Shown piece after piece: positions 1,485-25,478 of a stretch of 64,000 nt of DNA; position 1 is the stretch's first letter, and every line of letters begins with the position of its first letter. Origin of the DNA: an uncultured Trueperaceae bacterium (GTDB lineage: Bacteria > Deinococcota > Deinococci > Deinococcales > Trueperaceae); the NCBI GenBank assembly GCA_963799485.1, contig CAWCXJ010000013.1, forward strand, positions 384,001 to 448,000, read 5' to 3'. Below the pieces are notes generated by a model. The model was not told the DNA's origin and did no database searches. It saw nothing but the letters and a program-made list of their open reading frames with translations. Both the position numbers and the translations under genes were made by a program.

Positions 1485-2413
1485 GTATTCTCGTAGATAC
1501 GAACACCAAACTACTGGTTCAGGGCATCGGTAACTTCGGACGTTTTCACGCCGACCGCTCGGTCGCTTACGGCACCAACGTCGTCGGCGCGGTGCATCCG
1601 AGCCGTGCCGGACAGACCGAAGTCTTCGAGGGCGAAACCGACCACTCCGGCGTTCCCGGACGGCCCGACACCTACCACGTTGAAGTCCCCATCTTTTTTA
1701 CGGTGCAAGAAGCCGTGGAGCAGACCGGCGCAAACGCCACCGTCATCTTCGTACCGGGGCCGTTTGCCGGTGACGCCATCATGGAGGCCGCCGACGCCGG
1801 CATCCCGCTGATTGTCTGCATCACCGAAGGCATCGCTATTATGGATATGGTGCGGGTCAAGCGCTACTTGGAGGGCAAACCCACGCGCCTGGTCGGGCCG
1901 AACTGCCCCGGCGTCATCACCCCGCACGAATGCCGCATCGGGATTATGCCGGGATACATCCACCAAAAGGGCAAAATCGGCGTTATCTCGCGCTCGGGCA
2001 CCCTGACCTACGAAGCAGTGCATCAGCTGACCCAAAACGGCCTCGGGCAGACGACGGCTGTCGGTATCGGCGGCGACCCCGTAAACGGCACGAACTTTGT
2101 AGACGTTTTAGAGATGTTCAACGACGACCCGGAAACCGAAGGCGTGGTGATGATCGGCGAAATCGGCGGCACCGCTGAAGAGGAAGCCGCCGCCTGGATC
2201 AAGGCCAACATGACCAAACCCGTCGCGGGCTTTATCGCCGGGACGACGGCCCCACCGGGCAAACGCATGGGGCACGCCGGGGCGATTATCTCGGGCGGGA
2301 AAGGGACGGCTGCCGACAAGATGGCGGCCCTGAAAGACGCCGGGGTGGTGGTTGCGCCGACGCCGACGGATATGGGAGCGGCGATGATGGAGGCGATGGG
2401 AAAAAAGTCTTAA
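1481..2413 (+). CDS. sucD: Succinyl-CoA synthetase alpha subunit
   Basis: Start at ATG 1481 (ATGA overlap with sucC stop); [29 protein letters not shown] phosphohistidine motif. Confidence 0.95.
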
Positions 2414-2433
2414 GATAAATCTCAAGAGCTTCT

Positions 2434-3255
2434 ATGGACGAGTCAAAAAGTGAAAAACTTGCAAATTTTATCTCTTCTATGGAAGCTCTGAGCAGTGCTT
2501 TAGACGAATTTTTTGGACTGGTTGAAAAAGCGGCGGAAGACTACAAGCAAGCATTAAAAGATGGTTCCGAGAGTGACATCGAGGATGCTCTTGAGAGTTT
2601 CATGTTTTCTCAGTATCAATATATGCGCTCTAAATTTAATGGCTTATGGTACGAGGATATCAATTTAGAGCGCGGAATTTATAGACATGTTCCTTCTATA
2701 AGCATGTTTGGGGCACTCGATTTTGAATTTCTGATTCAGTCCTTGCTCTATATTCTTCAGGACAAGTACTATACTTTGACAAGCACCAGTTATGACGGTG
2801 GCATAGACCTTGAGTTCAGAGAAAACTTTTATTTCGGAAACGATATTGTTGGCTTCGGAAATTACTATGCTCAATGTAAATTGTATAGAGGAAACGTTCC
2901 GGTTGCACACATTAGGGATTTCTTCGGAGTAATAACTAATCAAGCAGCAGAGGGTTATTTCTTCACTACGGGAATAATTTCATCTTCGGGTAAAAAATTT
3001 ATTGAGAGTGCAAACAAATCTTCTTATTCGAACAAGTTGTACTTTGCGGATAAGCAAACTCTAAAGGTGTTACTTGAGATGGCAGATGAGGTTGTTGCTG
3101 TCACTGAAGCGCTCATGGAGATTGATTACACCACAGGCAATGGTCAAGAAACTTTTGATACACTTTGGAAACAGATAAAAAGAATCAAGCTCAAGAGCAA
3201 AGAAGTTATGAGTCCAAAACAACCAACAAACTTTCAGCGGAAACTTTTTGAATAG
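2434..3255 (+). CDS. Mrr-like (PD-(D/E)xK) restriction endonuclease domain protein
   Basis: DGGIDL...AQCKLY...VPVAHIRDFFG...GYFFTTG is the Mrr_cat pattern; clearly AT-rich relative to flanks. Confidence 0.75.
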   Translation: MDESKSEKLANFISSMEALSSALDEFFGLVEKAAEDYKQALKDGSESDIEDALESFMFSQYQYMRSKFNGLWYEDINLERGIYRHVPSISMFGALDFEFLIQSLLYILQDKYYTLTSTSYDGGIDLEFRENFYFGNDIVGFGNYYAQCKLYRGNVPVAHIRDFFGVITNQAAEGYFFTTGIISSSGKKFIESANKSSYSNKLYFADKQTLKVLLEMADEVVAVTEALMEIDYTTGNGQETFDTLWKQIKRIKLKSKEVMSPKQPTNFQRKLFE

Positions 3256-3294
3256 ACAAAGGTAATGGCCCACCGAAGAATGCTACGTTAAGGG

Positions 3295-3603
3295 ATGGTC
3301 ACAAAGGTCATAAGTTGCTACCACTGCGGGAGTGAAAAGCTCAAGAAGAACGGTTTTGCGCCTAACGGCAAACAGAAGTACTGGTGTAAAGCTTGCGGCA
3401 AAGCGAGCCGCGATAGGCCAGCTGCTAAAGGTTACCGCGAAGCGCGCAAGGAAGAGATTCTAAGGGCTTATCAGGAGCGTTCAAGCTTGCGAGGTCTGAG
3501 TCGCACGTTTGGCGTGTCTAGAACTACAGTGACGAAGTGGCTCAAAAAAAACCAAGACATTAGCGCCACTCAAAGACACCCTGCTTCCCCCGGAGCGCCC
3601 TGA
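3295..3603 (+). CDS. insA: IS1 InsA-like (zinc ribbon + HTH)
   Basis: CYHCGS...KNG...GKQKYWCKAC zinc ribbon then HTH; A8 run at 3544-3551. Confidence 0.85.
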   Translation: MVTKVISCYHCGSEKLKKNGFAPNGKQKYWCKACGKASRDRPAAKGYREARKEEILRAYQERSSLRGLSRTFGVSRTTVTKWLKKNQDISATQRHPASPGAP

Positions 3604-3607
3604 GCAA

Positions 3608-4027
3608 GTGATACTCGAACTCGATGAGCTTTGGTCTTTTGTAGGTTCTAAAAGCAACAAACGCTGGGTCTGGTTCGCTCTTTGCAAACGGACACGGCAA
3701 GTTGTCGCGTGCGTTGTGGGTGGACGCGGTGAGGCAACGTGCAAACAGTTATGGCGTTCGGTACCTAAATCTTACCAGCAGGGCAGCTGCTACAGCGATT
3801 TTTGCAAAGCCTACCAACTTGTTCTCCCCAAAGAGCGCCATCAGGCCGTTGGCAAAGGCACGGGTTTGACCAACCACCTTGAGCGTTTCAACTGTACTCT
3901 TAGGCAACGGCTTAGTCGCTTCGTTAGAAAAACCCTGTCTTTCTCCAAGTCCGATGCAATGCACCTCATTTGCTTACACCTCTTCTTGCACCGCTACAAC
4001 TTAGAGCGGGCTTCGAGCATTCGTTAA
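3608..4027 (+). CDS. insB: IS1 InsB-like DDE transposase part (probably reached by recoding at the A8 run)
   Basis: ELDELWSFVGSK, YSDF, TNHLERFNCTLRQRLSRFVRKTLSFSK motifs. Confidence 0.88.
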   Translation: MILELDELWSFVGSKSNKRWVWFALCKRTRQVVACVVGGRGEATCKQLWRSVPKSYQQGSCYSDFCKAYQLVLPKERHQAVGKGTGLTNHLERFNCTLRQRLSRFVRKTLSFSKSDAMHLICLHLFLHRYNLERASSIR

Positions 4028-4110
4028 TGGGCCACTACCGACAAATTCCGAGTTCGCCGCCAGCTCGAGCCCCTCTTCGCTCTATACTGTTCTCTGAGGT
4101 TGGTGACGAC

Positions 4111-4344
4111 ATGTTGGACTGGTCAAGCTGCTCTGCGGTAGAACGTGACGCTCAAAAAGTCAGTGGGGCTTGGGTGTTTAAGGGCTCGAGGGTTCCGGTC
4201 AGGGCACTTCTTGAGAACTTGGAAGATGGTGCAACGGTAGACGAGTTTCTCGAGTGGTTTCCCGGAATGACCAAGAACGCAGGTTCAGGGGTACTCGAAC
4301 ACTCACCAGTCGTAGCTTATAACGCTGAGCCTAGCGGTACGTGA
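4111..4344 (+). CDS. DUF433-domain protein (VapB45-like antitoxin), C-terminus possibly degenerate
   Basis: VERDAQKVSGAWVFKGSRVPVRALLENLEDGATVDEFLEWFP; ATG at 4111. Confidence 0.8.
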   Translation: MLDWSSCSAVERDAQKVSGAWVFKGSRVPVRALLENLEDGATVDEFLEWFPGMTKNAGSGVLEHSPVVAYNAEPSGT

Positions 4345-4560
4345 TAATACTTTAGGATTAAGGTCACCATCGCCCCACTACAAAGCATCGGCGGTAGATA
4401 TAACGTACGGGGGCTTTCGAATTAGGATGGACAAATTCTCGATAACGGGCGTCCGCACTGACCGAAGCCGGAACAAGCCGGGTTTGAGACGTTAATCACC
4501 ACAGACTTCAGAAGCGTGCCTATCAGCAAAATTTGCCGGAGCGCGAGCGACGACTTGCAG
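4341..4560 (+). pseudogene. Degenerate PIN-like (VapC45/DUF5615-type) toxin
   Basis: GTG overlapping the DUF433 stop reads IIL*D*G; fragments ELGW, EQAGFETLITTD and YQQNL are separated by frameshifts. Confidence 0.6.
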
Positions 4561-4588
4561 TAGTTCCTCCGGCAGCATAAAGCATAGA

Positions 4589-4910
4589 GTGAAGCTACTG
4601 TTTGACCAAAACCTTTCGCACCGACTTGCACAAACGCTCCGCGACCTTTCCCGGTTCGTTGCATGTGCGGAACGTAGGACTCAAGAAGCAGTTGACACTG
4701 TGATGTGGAACTATGCTAAAGAACACGGCTTCACAATCGTCTCAAAAGATATCGACTTTCGACCAAGGAGCTTTATTTTCGGAGCCCCGCCAAAGTGATT
4801 GGCATACGCTTGGGCAACTGTTCTGACGGCGAGGTTGAGTTGCACCTCCGGCACCATGCGCCAAGCAATTGAGGCTTTTGATGCAGACACAGGCTTGTCT
4901 TTCTCACATA
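4589..4910 (+). pseudogene. DUF5615-family PIN-like toxin, frameshifted
   Basis: MKLLFDQNLS...WNYAKEHGFTIVSKDIDF...GAPPK, continuing as GIRLGNCS and QAIEAF in shifted frames. Confidence 0.72.
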
Positions 4911-4930
4911 TCCGTTGGGAGCCGAACTTA

Positions 4931-5168
4931 ACGACTGAACCTTTACGGTACGAACTCATCATTTACTGGAGTGAAGAGGACAATGCCTTTATCGCTGAAG
5001 TCCCCGAGTTGCCGGGGTGTGCGGCAGGTACGAAGTTTGCGAAGCAACGGCGCGACTTACGCCGAAGCAGTAGCCAACGCTGAAATTGTGATTCAGGAGT
5101 GGCTCGAGACCGCCAAAGAGTTGGGCCGTGATATTCCGCAACCTAGAGGAAAACTCGTTTACGCTTAG
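4931..5168 (+). pseudogene. HicB-family antitoxin disrupted by a ~19-bp insertion
   Basis: YELIIYWSEEDNAFIAEVPELPGCAA and GATYAEAVANAEIVIQEWLETAKELGRDIPQP in adjacent frames; no canonical start codon (ACG at 4931). Confidence 0.8.
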
Positions 5169-5225
5169 AACTTTCGGTAAATCTTATAGAGTATTGATTC
5201 GCACATCAGTTTGTGCAATCAGAGC

Positions 5226-5426
5226 GTGGCAACGAATTTACAGTTAGATGACAACTTGATTCGTGAAGCCCTCGAGCTCGGCAAGCACCGCACCAAACGC
5301 GCCGTTATCGAGGAAACGTTACAGGAATACGTGCAGCGCCGTAAACAGCTCCGGGTGCTCGAGCTCTTCGGCACGGTCGAGTACGATAAAGATTACGACT
5401 ACAAGGTGCAGCGCCGCCGGGAGTGA
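5226..5426 (+). CDS. VapB-family type II antitoxin
   Basis: ATNLQLDDNLIREALELGKHRTKRAVIEETLQEYVQRRKQ...FGTVEYDKDYDYK; GTG at 5226; stop overlaps next start. Confidence 0.8.
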   Translation: MATNLQLDDNLIREALELGKHRTKRAVIEETLQEYVQRRKQLRVLELFGTVEYDKDYDYKVQRRRE

Positions 5427-5787
5427 GGGTTCTAGTTGACACCTCGGTCTGGTCGCTGGCGTTCAGGCGTAACGAAAACGCCGATGACCCACACGTCATG
5501 CTTTTGCGCGAGCTTATCCGCGACGGGCGTGCGCTACTCCTCGGTGCAGTTAGGCAAGAGGTACTTTCAGGCATCCGCTACGAGGCACAGTTCGAGCGGC
5601 TCAAACTTTACCTGCAAGCTTTTCCTCATCTCGAGTTGAGCAGTAACGACTTTGGGCTGGCAGCAGCATTTTTTAATACCTGTTCTGTGCGGTTGCAGCG
5701 CGTAGGCAGTTTGAAATTTTAACAACAGACAAGGACTTCAGGGCATTTCAGACACTTTTACCTATCAAACTTTATGGTGCCGGATAA
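5423..5787 (+). pseudogene. VapC PIN-domain toxin with internal deletion/frameshift
   Basis: VLVDTSVWS...QEVLSG...FFNTC, then the usual GS-x-TDFLI segment is absent; CAVAARRQFEILTTDKDF resumes in another frame, stop 5785-5787. Confidence 0.8.
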
Positions 5788-5991
5788 GGCTGCGAGAGCT
5801 TTACCTCGCGACCCTCGGATACTTTTCCGGCATCTCTAAAATGTCTAAGCTCAATACGTCCAGCGCCGGCCAGCAGAGATGGTTAGGCGACTCGAGCCAA
5901 GACTTTATCTCAACCGGGTTTGTTCAGCAAAACGCAGCCTAAACCTCAGGTGACCCCGTGCTTTTTTCCCAAACTCCTGTTATAACTGCGT

Positions 5992-6918
5992 ATGAAACTC
6001 TGGCTTACCTGTCTGCTCTTTCTCACCGCTTGCGCCCCCACCTTTACGCCACCCGCCGCGCGCGCGCCCGTCATTCCCGGCGCAACCCCGCAAACCGTCG
6101 CGTTCGGCCCCTACACCACCTACTACGAAACCCTTGGTGAGGGCGACGCGGTAGTTCTCGTGCACGGGATTGGAGGCGGCTCGAGCCTGTTCCAGTACCG
6201 TAAAAACGCCGCCGCCCTGGCAGCTGCCGGGCTCAAGGTCTACGCCCTCGATTTGCTCGGTTTTGGTCGGAGCAGTCGCCCGGACATCCGTTATACGCAG
6301 GATTTACTGACCGAACAGCTCACCGAATTTCTAGACCGGCTGCCGACGCCTGCCGCCGTCGTCGCCAACGGTCTCAGCGCGGCCTACGCGATCCGCATCG
6401 CCGCCGAACGTCCGGAGCTCATCAGCAAACTCGTGCTGATTAGTCCGACCGGCTACGAGCGGCTTGCCCGTCCGCAAAACGAAGACCGTATCGCCGGGTT
6501 CAACCGGTTTCGCGGGATTTTGGGCGGGATTTTTAACACCTTGCTGCTCGACCCCGGCACGCAGCGGTTTTTCTTACTCGACGCCTACGCAGGGCGCAAG
6601 AGCCTGACGCCCGAAGTTCTGGAAAGCTATGATGATAATTTGCGGGTTGAAAACGCCCGCTGGGTGATTTTTTCATTTGTCAGCGGCAACCTAGACCAGG
6701 ACGTCTCACGGCTCTGGCCCGAGGTGCAGCAGCCGGTGCTGATCCTGTGGGGCAGCGAGGCGACGACGACGCCTATCGGCGACGCACAGGACTTCATAGG
6801 GGCGAGGCCGCAGACGACGCTGCTACCGATTCGCGGCGTCAAGCTCTTGCCAAACGAGGACAGGCCGGGGGTGTTTAACCGGGTGGTGCGTTCCTTTTTA
6901 CGGGGCGGGCTGGAATAG
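5992..6918 (+). CDS. Alpha/beta-hydrolase-fold lipoprotein
   Basis: Lipobox LTAC; LVHGIGGG, DLLGFGRS, ILWG motifs. Confidence 0.8.
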   Translation: MKLWLTCLLFLTACAPTFTPPAARAPVIPGATPQTVAFGPYTTYYETLGEGDAVVLVHGIGGGSSLFQYRKNAAALAAAGLKVYALDLLGFGRSSRPDIRYTQDLLTEQLTEFLDRLPTPAAVVANGLSAAYAIRIAAERPELISKLVLISPTGYERLARPQNEDRIAGFNRFRGILGGIFNTLLLDPGTQRFFLLDAYAGRKSLTPEVLESYDDNLRVENARWVIFSFVSGNLDQDVSRLWPEVQQPVLILWGSEATTTPIGDAQDFIGARPQTTLLPIRGVKLLPNEDRPGVFNRVVRSFLRGGLE

Positions 6919-19112: not shown

Positions 19113-20030
19113 ATGAAAACCTTAGGACTTGACCTTGGCGGCACGAAGATTTTGGCCGCCGTGGTCGAAAACGGTCAGATTCTCGCGCGGCAGCAGTTGC
19201 CCACCCCGCGCACGGGTTACCCCGCTGTGCTGGGCGCGCTCGCTGAGGTGGCGGGAACACTCTTAAAAACGCATCCTGAAATTACCCGCATCGGTCTAGG
19301 GTCGCCTGGGCCACTCGATATGCGTGCTGGGAAGGTTGTCTTTGCGCCTAATATTCCGGGTATGGAGGACGTCCCTATCGCACGCGACCTGAGCGGGCGT
19401 CTGGGTCTCAGCGTCACGCTGGAAAACGACGCCAACGCCGCCGGTTACGCCGAACACCTTTACGGCGCGGCTAAAAGCTTGCAGAGCAGCATCTACATTA
19501 CGATTTCGACGGGTATCGGTGGCGGGCTTTTCGTCGGCGAACGGGTGGTGCGGGGCGCGTATGGCGTCGCCGGAGAGGTCGGGCACATGACCATTTTACC
19601 GGGCGGGCCACTCTGCGGCTGCGGACATTACGGTTGCCTGGAAGCCGTTGCCGCGGGCCGCGCCCTCGCCCGGGACGGGTCTCACGCCTACGGAATGCTC
19701 CTTACAACGAACGCGGTATTCGAGCGGGCGCGGGCCGGGGAGCGGTTAGCGCTGCGAGTCGTCGACCAGGCGGCGCTGTATACCGGGCTGGCGTTTTCCA
19801 ACCTGCTCAAAATCTTCGACCCCGACGCTTTCGTGCTGGGCGGCGGGATGATGCGGACGGGCAGCTTTTATCTGGACAAGGTTCAGGCCGCTGCCGACAC
19901 CTTTACAGAAGGTTTCCCCAATGCGAAACTACTGCTTGCCGAACTCGGTACCGACGCCGGGGTGATCGGGGCGGCGGCGGTTGCCGCGCACGAACTCTCG
20001 GCGGTCGAAGGGCCGTCGGTGCCTTCGTAG
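19113..20030 (+). CDS. ROK-family sugar kinase (glucokinase-like)
   Basis: GLDLGGTK, ENDANAA, STGIGGG, GEVGH, CGCGHYGCLE; start ATG 19113. Confidence 0.9.
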   Translation: MKTLGLDLGGTKILAAVVENGQILARQQLPTPRTGYPAVLGALAEVAGTLLKTHPEITRIGLGSPGPLDMRAGKVVFAPNIPGMEDVPIARDLSGRLGLSVTLENDANAAGYAEHLYGAAKSLQSSIYITISTGIGGGLFVGERVVRGAYGVAGEVGHMTILPGGPLCGCGHYGCLEAVAAGRALARDGSHAYGMLLTTNAVFERARAGERLALRVVDQAALYTGLAFSNLLKIFDPDAFVLGGGMMRTGSFYLDKVQAAADTFTEGFPNAKLLLAELGTDAGVIGAAAVAAHELSAVEGPSVPS

Positions 20031-20033
20031 CGG

Positions 20034-20339
20034 GTGGAGGCAGTAACGGGGGCTGAGCTTGTCACGGGCGTTGCGGCGGGGGGCGTACTCTTCGACGTGC
20101 GGCCCTTACCGAAGCGGGTGTTCGGCCTCGAGCCCCACCCGCTCGAGCTGGACGCGCTGCAACGGGGCGAACTGCCCGATTTGCCCCACGACACGCCCGT
20201 TTATCTAGTCTGCGAACGGGGCCAGGTGTCTGAGCTTGCCGGGTTATACCTCGAGGCGGCAGGGTTTACCCGGGTTTACCACCTGGCAGGCGGCACGAAA
20301 GCGTGGTCAAACGGAGCTGGAGCTGTTCGGCGTGGGTAA
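20034..20339 (+). CDS. Rhodanese-like domain protein
   Basis: FDVRP, VCERGQVS, GFTRVYHLAGG. Confidence 0.8.
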   Translation: MEAVTGAELVTGVAAGGVLFDVRPLPKRVFGLEPHPLELDALQRGELPDLPHDTPVYLVCERGQVSELAGLYLEAAGFTRVYHLAGGTKAWSNGAGAVRRG

Positions 20340-20362
20340 ACAGGCGTTTTTTCGGCGGTCTA

Positions 20363-21223
20363 TAGCAATTACCGGAGTAATTGAGCTAAAGATAAAGTGA
20401 TGAAGGCTTATTGATTTGGATTTACGCGAACGTATCGTTGAGGCAAAAGCTGGCGGTCTGTCTATCAGACAGACCGCCAAACGCTTTAAGGTAAGTTGTG
20501 CAAGTGTCAAACGTTTTGTCAGGCTGGAGCGGGAAGCAGGAAGCTTAAAAGCAAAGCGGCGACCTGGTAAACAACCGCTCCTGAACGATGAAGCACTGAG
20601 TGTTTTAGAGAAGCAGGTCCGGGAACGAAACGATCTAAGCTTGGCTGAGCATTGCCGGGAACTTGAACAGCGCAGCGGTTTACGAGTAAGCGTCACAACG
20701 CTGCAGCGCAGCTTGGGGCGGCTAAGCATCACGAGAAAAAAAGACGAAACACCCGCGTGAGCGCGATGGACAAGCAAGGCGAACTAGGCTCACGAGGGCC
20801 GGCCGAAGGTTGCCCGTTCTAGATGGCTGGTCAGAGGTGATTCAGTCCATACCCAGACCTTTGGCACTTACCGCGAGCATATCCTGTACCCTACGCTGTT
20901 TTCAGGGCAGATCGTAATCCTCGGTCCGAGCGTAGCGAGAACACAACGTAACAACTACAGCATCCATACCGACAGCAGGATTCGTGAACTCATCGAAGCA
21001 AAAGGCTGCACACTGCTCTTTTTGCCAACTTAACCCACCTGACCTGACGCCTATCGAAAACGCCTTTTCTAAGATCAAGGCGCTGCTTAGGCGAGCGAAA
21101 GCTACAACTCGAGAGGTGCTATCCCAGGCTGTTAGAGCTGTCTGTGATGCTATTTCTCTTCAAGACATTCTCAGTTGGTTCGGTAACTGTGGCTACTTGG
21201 GTCATTATCTGTGAAAACTGCTA
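20363..21223 (+). mobile_element. Degenerate IS630-family element (internal deletion, two micro-insertions)
   Basis: TA-flanked ends TAGCAATT / TAGCAGTT; MKAY..DLRERIV N-terminus with a stop; A7 slippery site; GQIVIL-DN and PDLTPIENAFSKIKALLR motifs. Confidence 0.85.
20781..20822. repeat. 42-bp micro-element, copy A
   Basis: 38/42 identical to the outer parts of 59318-59410. Confidence 0.8.
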
Positions 21224-21482
21224 TAGCAGCTCGCACCAGCTCTGGTGAGCTTTCAGTAGCCGCAGTAACTGGCTACGTTCCGGCAAACCTGCAAAAAGGC
21301 CGTCATAATCTCGTTTGAGCCAACGGTAAAAAGTTCTAAAATGAGTCCCTTTAAGCGCAAACAAGATACCGATAGTCACCAGTTCACCCGGGTACAGCTT
21401 GGCTTGCGGGTGCTTGGACAAAGGTGGTAGTTGCTCATCAACTTGATAGAAGATATGGATGATAATGTCCTCGGTAGCCATG
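21221..21482 (-). pseudogene. IS982-like transposase N-terminal fragment
   Basis: EDIIIHIFYQVDE...KHPQAKLYPGELVTIGILFALKG...LPERSQLLRL; cut at the IS630 end. Confidence 0.6.
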
Positions 21483-21509
21483 AACAGCCTCCATATGAGC
21501 TTGAACACC

Positions 21510-22000
21510 TAATCTTGCCCCGTTTTCCCGGAAAGGTAGTTAAGCAGCTTGCATGAAGTGTACCCTTTCAAAATCGTGGGGGGATGAAAAGCCCAGAGCG
21601 GAGTGCCTGCGCTTGGCGTTGTAAAAGCCCTCGAGGTAGCTGAAGATGCCGGTTCTAGCCTGCTGACGGGTTTCATAATTTGCGGCAACCTCATCAGTGT
21701 TAAGCGTAGCGAGAACGACTCGACAACTGCATTCTCATAACAACTGCCCTTATCCGACATGCTTTGCTGGAAGCCGTTCACGTTTAATTCGGCTCTAAAG
21801 GCGCGGCTGGCGTACTGAGTGCCCTGATCCGAATGGTGTGAAAGTGCAGTGGTAGCAGTCCGCTGCCGGGTTGCCAGCGACAGCGCTGAAAGCGTTAGGT
21901 CATCTGTCAACCTCTCTGAGAACGCCCAGCCTACAACCCTGCGGCTAAATAGGTCGAGCGTCACGGCGAGGTAAAGCCAGCCCTCAGCTGTCGAGATATA
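21510..22000 (-). pseudogene. IS3-family transposase C-terminal fragment with right end
   Basis: EGWLYLAVTLDLFSRRVVGW, HHSDQGTQY, ENAVVESF; frameshifted tail YLEGFYNAKRRHSALG; end resembles an IS3 right IR. Confidence 0.85.
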
Positions 22001-22062
22001 GAGGGTGTTTGAAAAATAACCCCCACTCGTGTTTGAGTGGGGGTTGATGATCAAACACCCTC
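22001..22062. mobile_element. 62-bp MITE-like palindromic element
   Basis: GAGGGTGTTTGA...TCAAACACCCTC terminal IR, inner AACCCCCACTC/GAGTGGGGGTT stem, TA on both sides. Confidence 0.75.
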
Positions 22063-22064
22063 TA

Positions 22065-22264
22065 AGTGGATTGCACGCCGCCATCTGCGCCACCTTGCAA
22101 CCTCCGCTACCAATGATCCCCCACACGCACGCGTCAAACCCTAGCCCGAGACGGCGATCTTGCAGAAGTGTTTTATAAGGGCGCGTAAACTCTGCTAGGG
22201 CTGACGCTGAAACCGCTCTTTTCTGTTCCATCTGAGACTATACAGACTTTTGTCCGGGTTTCAG
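22065..22264 (-). pseudogene. Transposase N-terminal fragment with IS end (IS4-like)
   Basis: End CTGAAACCCGGACAAAAG resembles the 62055 end; TATAGT -10 then ATG; LLQDRRL...GIIGSG fragment. Confidence 0.45.
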
Positions 22265-22300: not shown

Positions 22301-24346
22301 TTACTGCACCGCGACCGGCGCCGCTTCCGGCGCGAACAGTATCCAGCGCTTAAACGGCGTCAGATCGACCTCGATTCCGGTCGTGCTCACGAACGCAAAG
22401 CCGCCTTTGGGCGTCCAGCTGCCGGGGATTACTTTGCCGCGCAGGTAAAGCGTCGCTTCACCGCCGCTGTAGGGCAGGTAAAGACGCCCCTCGGGGTCGT
22501 CCGGGTAGGGAAACGCAACAACGCGGGCGACGACTACGGCGTCGGCGGTGACGGCTTCTTGCACCGCGTCGGTGGCTTCCGCGCCGCTCCTGACCCAGCG
22601 GTATCGGTCTAAGTCGGGCAGGTAGCGAAAGCCGCTCGAGTAGTCCGCCGAATAGTTTACGGTGACAGCAGCAGCGTTCGGCGCGTCTCCGGGCGGGGTG
22701 TAGAGCGTGCCGTTGACGCTGTTTTGCAGGCGACCTACCGCGTCCCGCAGGGCGGTTCCGGTAGAAAAGGTGCTGTGCGGCGCGGCGCGGTCGGGGGCTT
22801 GGGCGAACAGGTCACCTTGTTGCAAGGCGTCTAAAGTCGGCAGACCTTGCGAAGCGATACGCCCGACCGTACTTGGTGCGCCGCCGACGTGAACGAGGGT
22901 GCCGTTCATGGCTAGGGCGGCCTCGAGAAAATAGTCGCGGGCACTCCGAATGGGCCCGACCTGGGCGGGGTCGCCTTTGGTGTAGACGCTCATAAGCCGC
23001 GTTAGACCACCCTCGACGGGCATTTCAAAGACGCTCGAGGCCTCGACCAATCCTTGCTGCGGATAGGCGGCGTCGGCGTTGTCGAGAAGCACCGCGAGGG
23101 GTTTCTCGAGGGTGACTTCAAAGTTCTGGACGTTGGCGACGCCTGCGGGTGCCGTTCCTGCTCCGTCCGACGCTGCGCCCTGTCCGTCAGCAGCCGCCGC
23201 TGTACCTGTTTGGGCGTTGCGGGGACCGTCACCTGCGTCGGCAGCACCTGCGGCGGCTGCCGGGTCGGTTTCCGGCGTCGCGGCAGGGGCAGTCACGACC
23301 GCTTCCGCGTTCGGGGTAACGACCGAAACCGCGTCACCGACGGTAACACCGGGGGTTACGGCGAGCGGCTGCGCTCGACTCACCGAGACCTGGGCTTGCG
23401 GCTCGGGTACGTTCTCACCGGGCGCGACCTCACCGCGGACCGAGGGTTGCGGTACGGCGCGAGCCTGCGCCACGACCGCGCCCGCTTGCGGCTGCGGCAC
23501 GGGCCTCGAGGCAATTTGGGCCGTCGCCGCAGGTTGCGGCAAAGCCTGCGGCGCGCTGACCGCCGCACTCGCCTGCGGTGCAGGTACGTCTCTAGCAGCA
23601 AACTCGACCGCCACATCGGGCTCGGGAATCGCGTTCTCCGCGGTGACTTCGGCCTGGGCTTGCGGCAAGGTGATCGCTTGCAAGGCCAGTTCAGCGGTGA
23701 CCTCGGGGGTCGGCAGCGGTTCGCTCAGGGACACTTCAGCCTGCGGCGTTACGGCAATGCGGCGCTCAGAAGTCACGGCGATCTCGGGGTTGGGCGTGGG
23801 CAGCTCGAGCGCCGGTTGCAGGGGTTGCGGCGCGACCTCGACAGCTTCGATTTCCGGCAGCGTCGTAGCCGGGGGTTCTACGGGGAGCGGCGGCGTCGGC
23901 GCAACTTCCGGGACGCGCGCGGGCGGCGCTTGTTCGGACGGGGGCACGGCTTCGGCAAGTTCTGCCGGGTTTACGGGATTCACAGGTACGGGTACAGGGT
24001 CGGTAGTAGCGTCGGTAGCAACTTCAGGAACGGCTGCGCTTTGAGTCGCAGCGTCTTGGGCAGCGTTACCGGCAACCTGCGAGGTATCCGCTGGCGGGGC
24101 CGCTTCGCCGGTGGCGGCGGCAGGGGTCGCGGGTGCGCCGTTCTGGGGCGGGGTCAGCTCGAGCACCAGCAGTTGCGGCGTCTCCTGGGGCGGCAAGACG
24201 TAAAGCCACACCGCGCCGAGCAGAACGATCGCGTGAATAAGCAGCGACAAAAGAAGCGCACGCCGCCGCTCCCGGTCTCCCCAAAAACCGGCTGAACCGG
24301 AGCGCTCCGAGAGGCCTGAACGTCCGGCTGGTTGACGACCCGCCAA
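22301..24346 (-). CDS. TonB/TolA-like anchored protein with Pro/Ala-rich stalk and C-terminal DUF3048 domain
   Basis: N-terminal TM LLLSLLIHAIVLL (SxxxH); C-terminal PLAVLLDN..AYPQQGL..EMPVEGGLTRL..GPIRSARDYF; TTG start directly after the exbD stop with GGAGG upstream. Confidence 0.85.
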   Translation of the reverse strand: MAGRQPAGRSGLSERSGSAGFWGDRERRRALLLSLLIHAIVLLGAVWLYVLPPQETPQLLVLELTPPQNGAPATPAAATGEAAPPADTSQVAGNAAQDAATQSAAVPEVATDATTDPVPVPVNPVNPAELAEAVPPSEQAPPARVPEVAPTPPLPVEPPATTLPEIEAVEVAPQPLQPALELPTPNPEIAVTSERRIAVTPQAEVSLSEPLPTPEVTAELALQAITLPQAQAEVTAENAIPEPDVAVEFAARDVPAPQASAAVSAPQALPQPAATAQIASRPVPQPQAGAVVAQARAVPQPSVRGEVAPGENVPEPQAQVSVSRAQPLAVTPGVTVGDAVSVVTPNAEAVVTAPAATPETDPAAAAGAADAGDGPRNAQTGTAAAADGQGAASDGAGTAPAGVANVQNFEVTLEKPLAVLLDNADAAYPQQGLVEASSVFEMPVEGGLTRLMSVYTKGDPAQVGPIRSARDYFLEAALAMNGTLVHVGGAPSTVGRIASQGLPTLDALQQGDLFAQAPDRAAPHSTFSTGTALRDAVGRLQNSVNGTLYTPPGDAPNAAAVTVNYSADYSSGFRYLPDLDRYRWVRSGAEATDAVQEAVTADAVVVARVVAFPYPDDPEGRLYLPYSGGEATLYLRGKVIPGSWTPKGGFAFVSTTGIEVDLTPFKRWILFAPEAAPVAVQ

Positions 24347-24757
24347 CTAGTTGCCTCCGGTAGCAATCGCCACGCGCTCGGCACCTGCTTGCTTAATCAA
24401 GTCCATCACCCGCACGGGCAGGCCGTATTCGATACTCTGGTCGGCGCGCATCACCACGGTCGTCGCGCCGCTCGTCTCTAAAATAGGTCTGAGCGACGTG
24501 ATGAGCGTCGCTTCGGTGACCTCGGCGCCAGCCAAATAGATACGCCCTTCGCCGGTGATCGTGACGGTCGGCAAGTCCGAGGTTTGCGCCTGGGTTTGCG
24601 CTTGCGGCAGGTCTACGGGCAGGCCCGACTCGAGCGAGATAAAGGTCGTCGAAACCATAAAAAAAATCACCAGCGTAAAGACCACATCGACCATCGGCGT
24701 GAGGTCTAGCAGCGGCCCCGTTTGGGCAACGGCGCGGTTACGGCGGGCGCGGCTCAT
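24347..24757 (-). CDS. exbD: ExbD/TolR family protein
   Basis: DLTPMVDVVFTLVIFFMV, VDLPQA, RADQSIEYGLPVRVMDLIKQAG; start ATG 24757. Confidence 0.9.
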   Translation of the reverse strand: MSRARRNRAVAQTGPLLDLTPMVDVVFTLVIFFMVSTTFISLESGLPVDLPQAQTQAQTSDLPTVTITGEGRIYLAGAEVTEATLITSLRPILETSGATTVVMRADQSIEYGLPVRVMDLIKQAGAERVAIATGGN

Positions 24758-24794
24758 ACTGTACTCAACCCTGACTCGTTCGTATCTAACTTGT

Positions 24795-25478
24795 TCATAC
24801 GGTGGGCTCGAAGGTATCGGCTTGCGTGGCTTCAGTCCGGCCCGTGCTGCTCCGCGCGGTCTCACGGCCTTTTAACGACACCGCCTGCGCCACGTTCCCC
24901 ATCAGCTCTTCACGGCGACGCTCGAGTTCGACCAAAATCCCCTCGACCCGGCTCGCCAGGTAGCTATGCCCTAAAACGGTCGGGATGGCGACGAAAAGTC
25001 CCGCCGCCGTCGTAATCAGCGCCTGACCGATACCGCCTGCGAGCGCTGCCGGGTCGCCCGTTCCCTGCGACGACACCACTGCAAACGCCTGAATCATCCC
25101 GGTCACGGTTCCCAACAGGCCCAAGAGCGTCGCCACCTGTGCGATAGTCGCCAGCGGACGCAAGCCGCGCGTAAGGTGCTGTTCTTCGCTCAAATACGCT
25201 TCTTGAAAGGCCGCCTCGACTGCCGGACGCCCGTAAGGAATCCGGGCGAGCGCCGCTTTGAGCACGCGCGCGACCGGGCCGCCGTGGTGATCGCAAGCGA
25301 TCATCGCCATCTCGAGGTTTCGGCCCAGCACCGCCGCGTTCACCCGCGCCATCAACCGGTCGGCGTCGGGGCGCTCACGCGAGAGCTTAAAAAGCCGGGT
25401 CAGAAATAAATAAAGGGCGTAAAGTGAGAGCAGTAAAATAACGAGCAGCACCGGGCCGCCACTCAAAAGCAAATCCAT
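24795..25478 (-). CDS. exbB: ExbB/TolQ/MotA proton channel family protein
   Basis: LLGLLGTVTGMIQAF, GIGQALITTAAGLFVAIP. Confidence 0.9.
   Translation of the reverse strand: MDLLLSGGPVLLVILLLSLYALYLFLTRLFKLSRERPDADRLMARVNAAVLGRNLEMAMIACDHHGGPVARVLKAALARIPYGRPAVEAAFQEAYLSEEQHLTRGLRPLATIAQVATLLGLLGTVTGMIQAFAVVSSQGTGDPAALAGGIGQALITTAAGLFVAIPTVLGHSYLASRVEGILVELERRREELMGNVAQAVSLKGRETARSSTGRTEATQADTFEPTV

Follow-up and report, generated by a model that had tools for sequence, protein, structure and literature searches.

A proton-motor operon of Trueperaceae encoding a TonB-like arm with a DUF3048 head: a candidate envelope-maintenance machine

To our knowledge, the Ton and Tol systems are the only known carriers of proton-motive energy to the outer envelope, and both are defined by the partner found at the tip of their arm. 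In these systems, the motif SxxxH marks the TonB or TolA helix that engages the ExbBD or TolQR proton motor, and such arms normally end in a TonB_C or TolA_C domain. A further group of arms, tipped with von Willebrand A (vWA) domains and named "motor-driven force transducers", is described in the text of Williams-Jones et al. (2025, Mol Biol Evol msaf138; PMC12204202), where their function is given as unknown. The same text describes Tol-Pal as restricted to the Gracilicutes, and an older analysis asserts, in a passage of PMC1586193, that the Deinococcus-Thermus group has no TonB complex. Here we analysed a stretch of 64,000 nucleotides (nt) from the genome of an uncultured Trueperaceae bacterium, referred to below as the window. 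An operon on its minus strand, at positions 22301-25478, encodes ExbB, ExbD and a TonB-like arm protein of 681 amino acids (aa) that carries a DUF3048 head.

We propose that these three genes form a self-contained envelope machine of the Ton/Tol type, with a wall-directed DUF3048 head and a Tol-like role in envelope maintenance rather than in nutrient import, and we put the probability of this reading at about 0.7. ExbB and ExbD would constitute the proton-driven motor of the inner membrane, on which the arm would dock by its transmembrane helix (S34, H38) and probably also by a juxtamembrane strand. The Ala/Pro-rich linker of about 330 residues would reach across the periplasm and the wall, and would present a YerB-type head instead of a TonB or TolA C-terminal domain. 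This head would bind or process a ligand associated with the cell wall (peptidoglycan, or a polymer linked to the wall) and not a barrel of the outer membrane, and the proton-motive force, acting through the motor, would pull on the head, move it or switch it.

The list of open reading frames (ORFs) and their translations gives three consecutive minus-strand ORFs in 22301-25478. The first gene, exbB (24795..25478), encodes a proton-channel subunit of the MotA/TolQ/ExbB family with 227 aa (Pfam MotA_ExbB, PF01618, E 8.6e-30), which scored under the cut-offs of both NCBIfam equivalogs, TolQ (81 bits) and ExbB (61 bits). The mechanical ORF of exbD spans 24347-24865 and starts inside exbB. The true start is likely to be the ATG at 24757, which leaves a gap of 37 nt behind the exbB stop. 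The protein of 136 aa read from this codon (24347..24757; ExbD/TolR family, Pfam ExbD, PF02472, E 4e-27) aligns with its relatives from end to end. Of the exbD gene proposed in the first-pass annotation, the gene itself was retained and the start was revised, since the upstream extension of 36 codons that overlaps exbB is probably untranslated. The codon of the transmembrane Asp, D24, lies at 24686-24688 on the minus strand, and this residue was kept in 22 of the 22 aligned ExbD sequences, which come from three families of the Deinococcota and from the Atribacterota.

The arm gene occupies 22301..24346, stop codon included, and starts with a TTG located immediately after the TAG stop of exbD, in agreement with the tight exbB-exbD-arm operon and the abutting arm start already described by the first-pass annotation. 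A GGAGG ribosome-binding site can be read in the sequence at 24354..24358 on the minus strand, inside the end of exbD and 7 nt before the TTG. Because of this site and the abutting start, the translation of the arm is probably coupled to that of exbD. A look-up of RNA runs covering the 3.2-kb operon returned none. The N-termini of the homologues are conserved from the TTG start onward.

At its N-terminus the arm has a basic cytoplasmic stretch and then a Ser-x3-His helix, residues 24-51 reading D-x3-RRRALLLS34LLIH38AIVLLGAVWLYVL. The putative transmembrane helix was placed at residues ~30-51 (24194..24259, minus strand) from the translation and the arm alignment, and is preceded by the conserved D24-x3-R28-R29-A30. 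In an alignment of 56 arms, R28, S34 and H38 were invariant and D24, R29 and A30 were at least 90% conserved; these rows had been chosen for an intact N-terminus and mostly bear the motif, and the invariance figure is therefore not independent. The conservation of the motif was also counted by applying a basic motif followed by an x-x3-x pattern to 239 collected homologues, which gave 108 matches: 93 SxxxH, five T/AxxxH (four TxxxH and one AxxxH), one SxxxQ, and nine pattern misfires or other N-termini, two of which are SxxxH arms caught at an earlier Arg run. The stand-alone members of the DUF3048 family do not carry the Ser-x3-His motif. As stated in the first-pass annotation, stand-alone forms are usual for this domain: the distant members mostly have 330-400 aa and signal-peptide or lipoprotein-like N-termini.

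Just outside the membrane, a hydrophobic strand-like segment (residues 58-67, QLLVLELTPP; 24146..24175, minus strand) shows at least 90% conservation of V61 and P67 in the 56-row alignment. Of 100 arms that bear the His, 98 have a segment of the LLVLEL type no more than 50 residues beyond it. The segment is a candidate "motor box", a term used in the text of PMC12204202 for a predicted beta-strand after the helix, and may contact ExbD. A complex prediction with two copies of ExbD residues 40-136 and arm residues 50-92, run without controls, scored 0.07 against a mark of 0.32 and is no evidence either way. The strand is followed by the putative periplasm-spanning linker, delimited by composition at residues 68-399 (23150..24145, minus strand) and made up of 24% Ala, 17% Pro and 12% Val, in which VPxPxxxAxV-like units recur (consensus of the 56 arms). 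With its 332 residues it comes close to the ~350 aa of Pro/Ala-rich linker that had been noted in the first-pass annotation together with the SLLIH helix.

The head consists of a DUF3048 N-terminal domain (PF11258; residues 413-538; 22733..23110, minus strand; E 3.7e-33, 115.2 bits against a cut-off of 25) and a DUF3048_C beta domain (PF17479; residues 561-669; 22340..22666, minus strand; E 5.1e-08, 33.7 bits against a cut-off of 25). Nothing besides these two domains was found on the arm in Pfam-A at E<=1, where TonB_C, TonB_2, TolA and vWA did not match, and no NCBIfam model matched the arm protein. The C-terminal 282 residues match YerB of B. subtilis (PDB 2psb) in sequence, with a phmmer E of 1e-21 and about 25% identity. 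An AlphaFold2 model of the head, built from an alignment of 127 rows, has a mean predicted local distance difference test score (pLDDT) of 97, and resembles 2psb with a Foldseek E of 2e-24 and a template modelling score of 0.83, and with a VIA-align Z of 32.8 over 266 residues at a root-mean-square deviation (rmsd) of 2.4. This YerB-like two-domain unit fills the whole C-terminus of the arm. Beyond YerB, the best of 48,161 representative PDB chains reached only Z 3.1 in VIA-align, and no vWA entry appeared in either fold search; the fold therefore offers no functional analogue. With regard to the suspicion that the protein is simply a TonB or TolA with an overlooked C-terminal domain, it is true that the N-terminal two thirds of the arm are TonB-like. 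At the level of sequence and fold, however, this reading was refuted by the Pfam result and by the confidently modelled YerB-like unit, and the genome shows none of the TonB-dependent receptors, TolB or Pal with which such an arm would work; we give it next to no chance.

The sequence motifs PLAVLLDN, EMPVEGGLTR and GPIRSAR, by which the first-pass annotation had recognised the domain, are present in the translation and fall on nearly invariant columns of the family. The near-invariant residues of the head are N423, P429-Q430, G432, E441, E445-G-G, T449-R450, G464-P465, R467-S468, R470, Y472, H486, D617 and W644; they are mostly polar and clustered in sequence. The polar residues are conserved to the same degree in arms and stand-alone forms, as can be seen for N423 (28/28 and 81/81, respectively), R467 (27/28 and 80/81) and H486 (28/28 and 79/81).

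The motor and partner genes were inventoried over the whole genome (3.66 Mb, 99.99% complete, 4.63% contamination). The exbB of the operon is the only gene of the MotA/ExbB family (PF01618), and there is a single DUF3048 gene. No TonB_C or TonB_2 domain was found above cut-off anywhere in the genome, no TonB-dependent receptor barrel (PF00593), Plug (PF07715) or TolB_N at E<=1, and no OmpA-family domain at E<=0.01; owing to the latter, a Pal- or MotB-type protein is also missing from the matches. The absence of TonB-dependent receptor, TolB and Pal, which the first-pass annotation had stated for the neighbourhood of the operon, thus extends by domain search to the genome. One Omp85 match and three SLH-domain matches were detected, which fits a double-membraned cell with SLH-type attachment of the wall.

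The idea that the ligand of the head is associated with the wall follows from two observations taken together: the genome lacks matches to TonB-dependent receptors, TolB and Pal, and the conserved head residues are shared with YerB-like proteins of single-membraned Firmicutes. Since the same site is conserved in organisms with one membrane, we infer a ligand common to both envelope types, which could be peptidoglycan, a wall-linked polymer or a lipid-linked precursor. The same observations bear on energised uptake, in which the head would capture a substrate or open an outer-membrane channel other than a TonB-dependent transporter (for example an SLH-type porin), as an analogue of TonB-driven import. 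Such a function would suit an arm that is TonB-like rather than helical and TolA-like, and a genome that has no TonB-dependent transporters yet keeps an outer membrane with SLH proteins. Additionally, part of the N-terminal subdomain of the head resembles periplasmic binding proteins weakly, at a Z of 2.0-2.4 that is not significant. Against this, the head and its residues are widespread among Firmicutes with a single membrane, where no outer membrane has to be crossed, and no transporter gene is linked to the operon; we regard uptake as improbable.

The linkage of the arm to the motor was analysed in related genomes of the Deinococcota. When the arm was used as query, 29 of 41 related genomes gave a match, namely all 24 of the window's own family and all four of a second family, with 0/4 in each of three other families. 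All 16 loci examined have exbD immediately ahead of the arm and in the same orientation, and 14 of them also have exbB ahead of exbD; the other two loci end before exbB is reached. The analysis was extended to the phylum with an even sample of 201 genomes, in which the coordinates of the ExbD and DUF3048 matches were compared by hand. ExbD was found in 149 of these genomes and DUF3048 in 50, the latter distributed over the window's own family (40/40, plus the window genome) and the second family (9/9), with 0/92, 0/57 and 0/2 in the other families. In 49 of the 50 genomes, ExbD lies 0.8-1.9 kb upstream of DUF3048 on the same contig and strand, and in the remaining one the two matches lie near the ends of different contigs, at a contig break. 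Within this sample, DUF3048 occurs only in genomes that also carry ExbD. Contrary to the assertion in the cited passage of PMC1586193, an ExbBD motor with a TonB-like arm is widespread in the Deinococcota.

A sister family of the same phylum keeps the motor and the arm but carries a different head. ExbD was present in 89 of its 92 genomes in the phylum sample and DUF3048 in none. In this family, exbB-exbD is followed by an arm of 593-793 aa (L017:1910-5586, L018-L020; L106-L135) with a T/AxxxH helix, a similar strand (PLEVVTLAP) and a very long Pro/Ala/Thr linker. The arm ends in a C-terminal domain of about 125 aa with two invariant Cys, and is followed by a conserved secreted protein of 231-255 aa; no Pfam family was found for either of them. 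The head was detected in 60 of 61 genomes of the family, at about 2 kb from ExbD where coordinates were compared. Modelled from 30 rows (pLDDT 81), this head resembles only domain D2 of Treponema pallidum Tp0624, with a Z of 9.5 over 105 residues at an rmsd of 3.5, the next entry having a Z of 2.8. In the text of PMC5104382, the authors call D2 previously uncharacterised. Because the sister family keeps exbB-exbD and the arm but has another head, the sequences present the arm as a modular carrier whose head is exchanged within one phylum.

The wider scan covered one genome per species and was performed with an alignment of three distant Lys/Glu-rich arms as query, yielding 80 loci whose flanks were searched with hidden Markov models (HMMs) built from the ExbB and ExbD of Deinococcota. 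An exbD gene was found directly upstream in ten of the 80 loci and exbB in nine, all of them in genomes named as Atribacterota. Twelve loci carry that label; of the two without upstream exbD, one has only 61 nt of upstream flank and the other encodes a stand-alone form of 320 aa. The remaining 68 loci (Firmicutes, Riflebacteria, Coriobacteriia and others) gave no exbB or exbD match, within the sensitivity of the two HMMs. The order exbD-arm::DUF3048 is thus kept in two phyla, and the linkage is not peculiar to the window genome. The ExbD proteins of Atribacterota are 37-41% identical to that of the window, and those of the sister family 32-41%. Two types of arms occur in the Atribacterota, one with SLxIH (L033, L068) and one with S...N, in which Asn stands at the His position. 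Most of the arms linked to exbB-exbD are of the Asn type, for example FSLALNILI (L027-L032, L034-L036). Asn can replace His20 of E. coli TonB.

These results can be compared with the more modest reading that the 681-aa protein is a passive anchor, a membrane-bound YerB-like exoprotein on a long stalk that shares an operon with exbBD without being coupled to it mechanically. Most DUF3048 proteins are indeed anchored by a membrane helix or a lipid and have no motor. Conservation of the Ser-x3-His helix and the juxtamembrane strand is nevertheless specific to the motor-linked forms, both phyla retain the gene order, the start of the arm appears to be translationally coupled to exbD, and the motor of the genome would otherwise be left without a transducer; passive anchoring is accordingly judged highly improbable.

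The DUF3048 family comprises at least 5,525 representative clusters at E<=0.001 and 2,690 at 1e-10, and no tested function of DUF3048 or YerB was found in a literature search. Because DUF3048 is fused elsewhere to PEGA, RCC1, dockerin and TPR modules, its sequences mark it as a portable extracytoplasmic module. The dockerin fusion has two DUF3048 units, and the others include an RCC1 beta-propeller and TPR repeats (P0136, P0157, P0220). In the Clostridia and other Firmicutes (L037-L105), the stand-alone gene sits in the housekeeping block yqfD-phoH-7TM_HD (PgpH-like)-ybeY-dgkA-[DUF3048]-cdd-era-recO-glyQS, the clusters flanking it being present in 22-38 of the 80 loci; this context contains no clear functional hint.

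Some of these features would also suit an enzyme, that is, a head acting as a hydrolase or transferase on polymers of the wall or envelope and delivered or activated by the motor through force or positioning. The head is dense in near-invariant polar positions (N, Q, E, E, T, R, R, S, R, Y, H, D), as is typical of an active or ligand site, and dockerin fusions are usually seen in secreted enzymes. No enzyme was matched by structure, though, the next entry after YerB having a Z of 3.1, no catalytic motif is known for DUF3048, and no functional study was found in the literature. We consider an enzymatic head unlikely.

The relationships among the heads were analysed with a quick maximum-likelihood tree of 127 heads (Shimodaira-Hasegawa-like approximate likelihood ratio support, midpoint root), a more careful search being unfinished. 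One clade of 49 rows (support 100) unites all 29 His-type arms from the Deinococcota side with two PEGA-type proteins and several truncated ORFs, and within it the PEGA-type heads nest beside the window head (support 96). The PEGA-type proteins have about 490-545 aa and consist of a signal peptide, a PEGA-like N-terminal domain and a DUF3048 head that is 63-80% identical to that of the window (P0022-P0036, P0111). The window genome has no second, PEGA-type copy of DUF3048. Owing to their position inside the arm clade, the PEGA forms probably arose from an arm head through an N-terminal swap, apparently a recent one, that placed it on another carrier.

Several points weigh against the proposed envelope-maintenance machine. 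The contact between arm and motor is inferred from sequence motifs and synteny, and the wall ligand from phyletic reasoning, the head fold matching only YerB, a protein with no reported function. In the text of PMC12204202, the motor-binding motif of the transducer helix is given as Ser-His-Leu-Ser. The window arm keeps it only at Ser and His (S34, H38). The positions at which Leu and Ser are expected, which we take from the spacing in E. coli, are presumably A45 and Y49. An uncultured bacterium encodes a DUF3048 arm of 712 aa and SLIIH type that has no exbB or exbD within 6 kb (L026:5965-8103), and TonB genes are often unlinked from their motor according to the text of PMC12204202. The neighbours of the 712-aa arm are LysE, DUF3108, metallophosphatase and sugar-metabolism genes. 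In the quick tree, three Atribacterota-type heads fall unresolved on the other side, among the stand-alone forms, and a single origin of the arm::DUF3048 fusions of Deinococcota and Atribacterota is not shown by these sequences. Lastly, no conserved fourth gene that would point to a partner was found in the flanks (about 1.5 kb) of the Truepera-family loci. Judged by their translations, a metallophosphatase-like ORF is present in four and a LysM/M23-like ORF in three of 12 such loci; as parts of the operon these ORFs were not counted, and at one locus (L011) they lie on the strand opposite to the operon.

On a broader view, which we offer as a tentative and rather doubtful extension, exbB-exbD-arm::DUF3048 might be the long-missing energised envelope-maintenance machine of double-membraned phyla of the Terrabacteria side that have no Tol-Pal. 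The proton-motive force would then act through the head on the wall or on the connection between wall and outer membrane. On this view, the YerB-like lipoproteins that occur by the thousands as stand-alone forms in single-membraned Firmicutes and Actinobacteria would represent the same wall-engaging module without the motor.

The genes that flank the operon are unrelated to it. A phosphoenolpyruvate carboxylase gene lies upstream on the same strand. Downstream of the arm are an ORF with an rve integrase core and a transposase-like ORF with an IS630-type helix-turn-helix (HTH), and then rhodanese and ROK genes. The region directly 3' of the arm gene, 20416-22231, is insertion-sequence debris and comprises the rve integrase-core ORF (21512-22231, minus strand), an ORF of 95 aa (21224-21508, minus strand), a separate piece of 76 aa (20984-21211, plus strand) and the IS630-type HTH fragment (20416-20757, plus strand). 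The GC content falls to 0.54 in 20001-22000. A second stretch of low GC (0.48-0.52, compared to about 0.60 elsewhere) lies at 2001-6000; it probably represents inserted DNA of mobile or foreign origin, and contains ORFs for an Mrr-type restriction endonuclease (2434-3252) and a DUF433 protein (3970-4341), together with a fragment of an IS1 transposase (3608-4024).

When the window-type system is compared with the stand-alone relatives of its head, YerB of B. subtilis is similar in fold and sequence (Z 32.8, E 1e-21) and in the near-invariant polar residues. The YerB-type proteins, by contrast, are lipoproteins or signal-anchored proteins of 330-400 aa and lack a motor, the Ser-x3-His helix and a long linker. 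For DUF3048, a family with one solved structure, the operon offers a first lead, namely an extracytoplasmic head mounted on a putative force-transducing arm.

The Ton system of E. coli shares with the window the MotA/ExbB- and ExbD-family subunits and the transmembrane Asp of ExbD, and its arm likewise has an N-terminal Ser-x3-His helix and a proline-rich spacer, as well as a juxtamembrane strand to which the strand-like segment of the window arm would correspond. The two differ at the tip, where Ton has a TonB_C of about 80 aa and the window arm a DUF3048 head of 282 aa with the YerB fold, and in their clients, since Ton serves TonB-dependent transporters, for which neither barrel nor Plug was found in the window genome. 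Moreover, the motor and arm genes of the window-type system are always adjacent, unlike those of Ton. Tol-Pal resembles the window system in having the motor and the arm in one operon and in being a housekeeping system present once per genome. For the window system, too, envelope maintenance is a more plausible role than import, and its ExbB scores slightly better on the TolQ model than on the ExbB model. Tol-Pal differs by its TolB_N and OmpA/Pal components, which have no match in the window genome, and by a TolA head to which the window head bears no likeness. According to the text of PMC12204202, Tol-Pal is also a system of the Gracilicutes, whereas the window type was found in Deinococcota and Atribacterota. 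The Atribacterota clusters have the same exbB-exbD-arm::DUF3048 order as the window, but their arms are shorter (485-496 aa), with Lys/Glu-rich linkers and in many cases Asn for His. Judged by its sequence, the system is built like Ton and Tol, with a motor, a docking helix and a spanning linker, but belongs to neither, as there is no TonB_C, TonB-dependent transporter, TolB or Pal. In the Truepera family, whose ExbBD would otherwise have no assigned function for want of a TonB-dependent receptor, TolB or Pal, the DUF3048-tipped arm provides the motor with a candidate role, and in the sister family the same question finds a comparable answer with a tip of another kind.

Among published concepts, that of the vWA-tipped force transducers, as presented in the text of PMC12204202, comes closest. 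Like the window arm, they combine a TonB-like helix that keeps the His with a linker that is disordered or rich in proline and with a globular head other than TonB, and their genes are syntenic with tolQ/tolR-like genes; the motor box of their linker has a candidate counterpart in the strand of the window arm. The window arm has the features by which Williams-Jones et al. define the group there: His helix, disordered linker, globular non-TonB head and motor synteny. By the same text, they differ in the head (von Willebrand A instead of DUF3048/YerB), in a domain II of about 100 residues, several times shorter than the window linker, and in a heterologous tolR pair, where the window has one exbD and the Truepera-family operon no TPR gene. 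Their hosts, as listed there, are Proteobacteria, PVC, Bacteroidetes and Rhodothermaeota, compared to Deinococcota and Atribacterota for the window type. DUF3048, YerB, Deinococc*, Truepera and Thermus are absent from the text of PMC12204202 and from the one supplement searched. Our literature search found no paper on a DUF3048-tipped arm, and on the motor genes in Truepera and in Atribacter it yielded nothing pertinent except PMC12204202. The statement in the first-pass annotation that no description of this architecture was known therefore holds for the DUF3048 tip; for non-TonB heads on TonB-like arms it does not, since those with vWA were published in 2025 (PMC12204202). Together with the vWA arms, as described in that text, the window arm supports the view of the TonB-like arm as a modular carrier of interchangeable heads, and it suggests that the machines energising the outer envelope include a variant so far undescribed.

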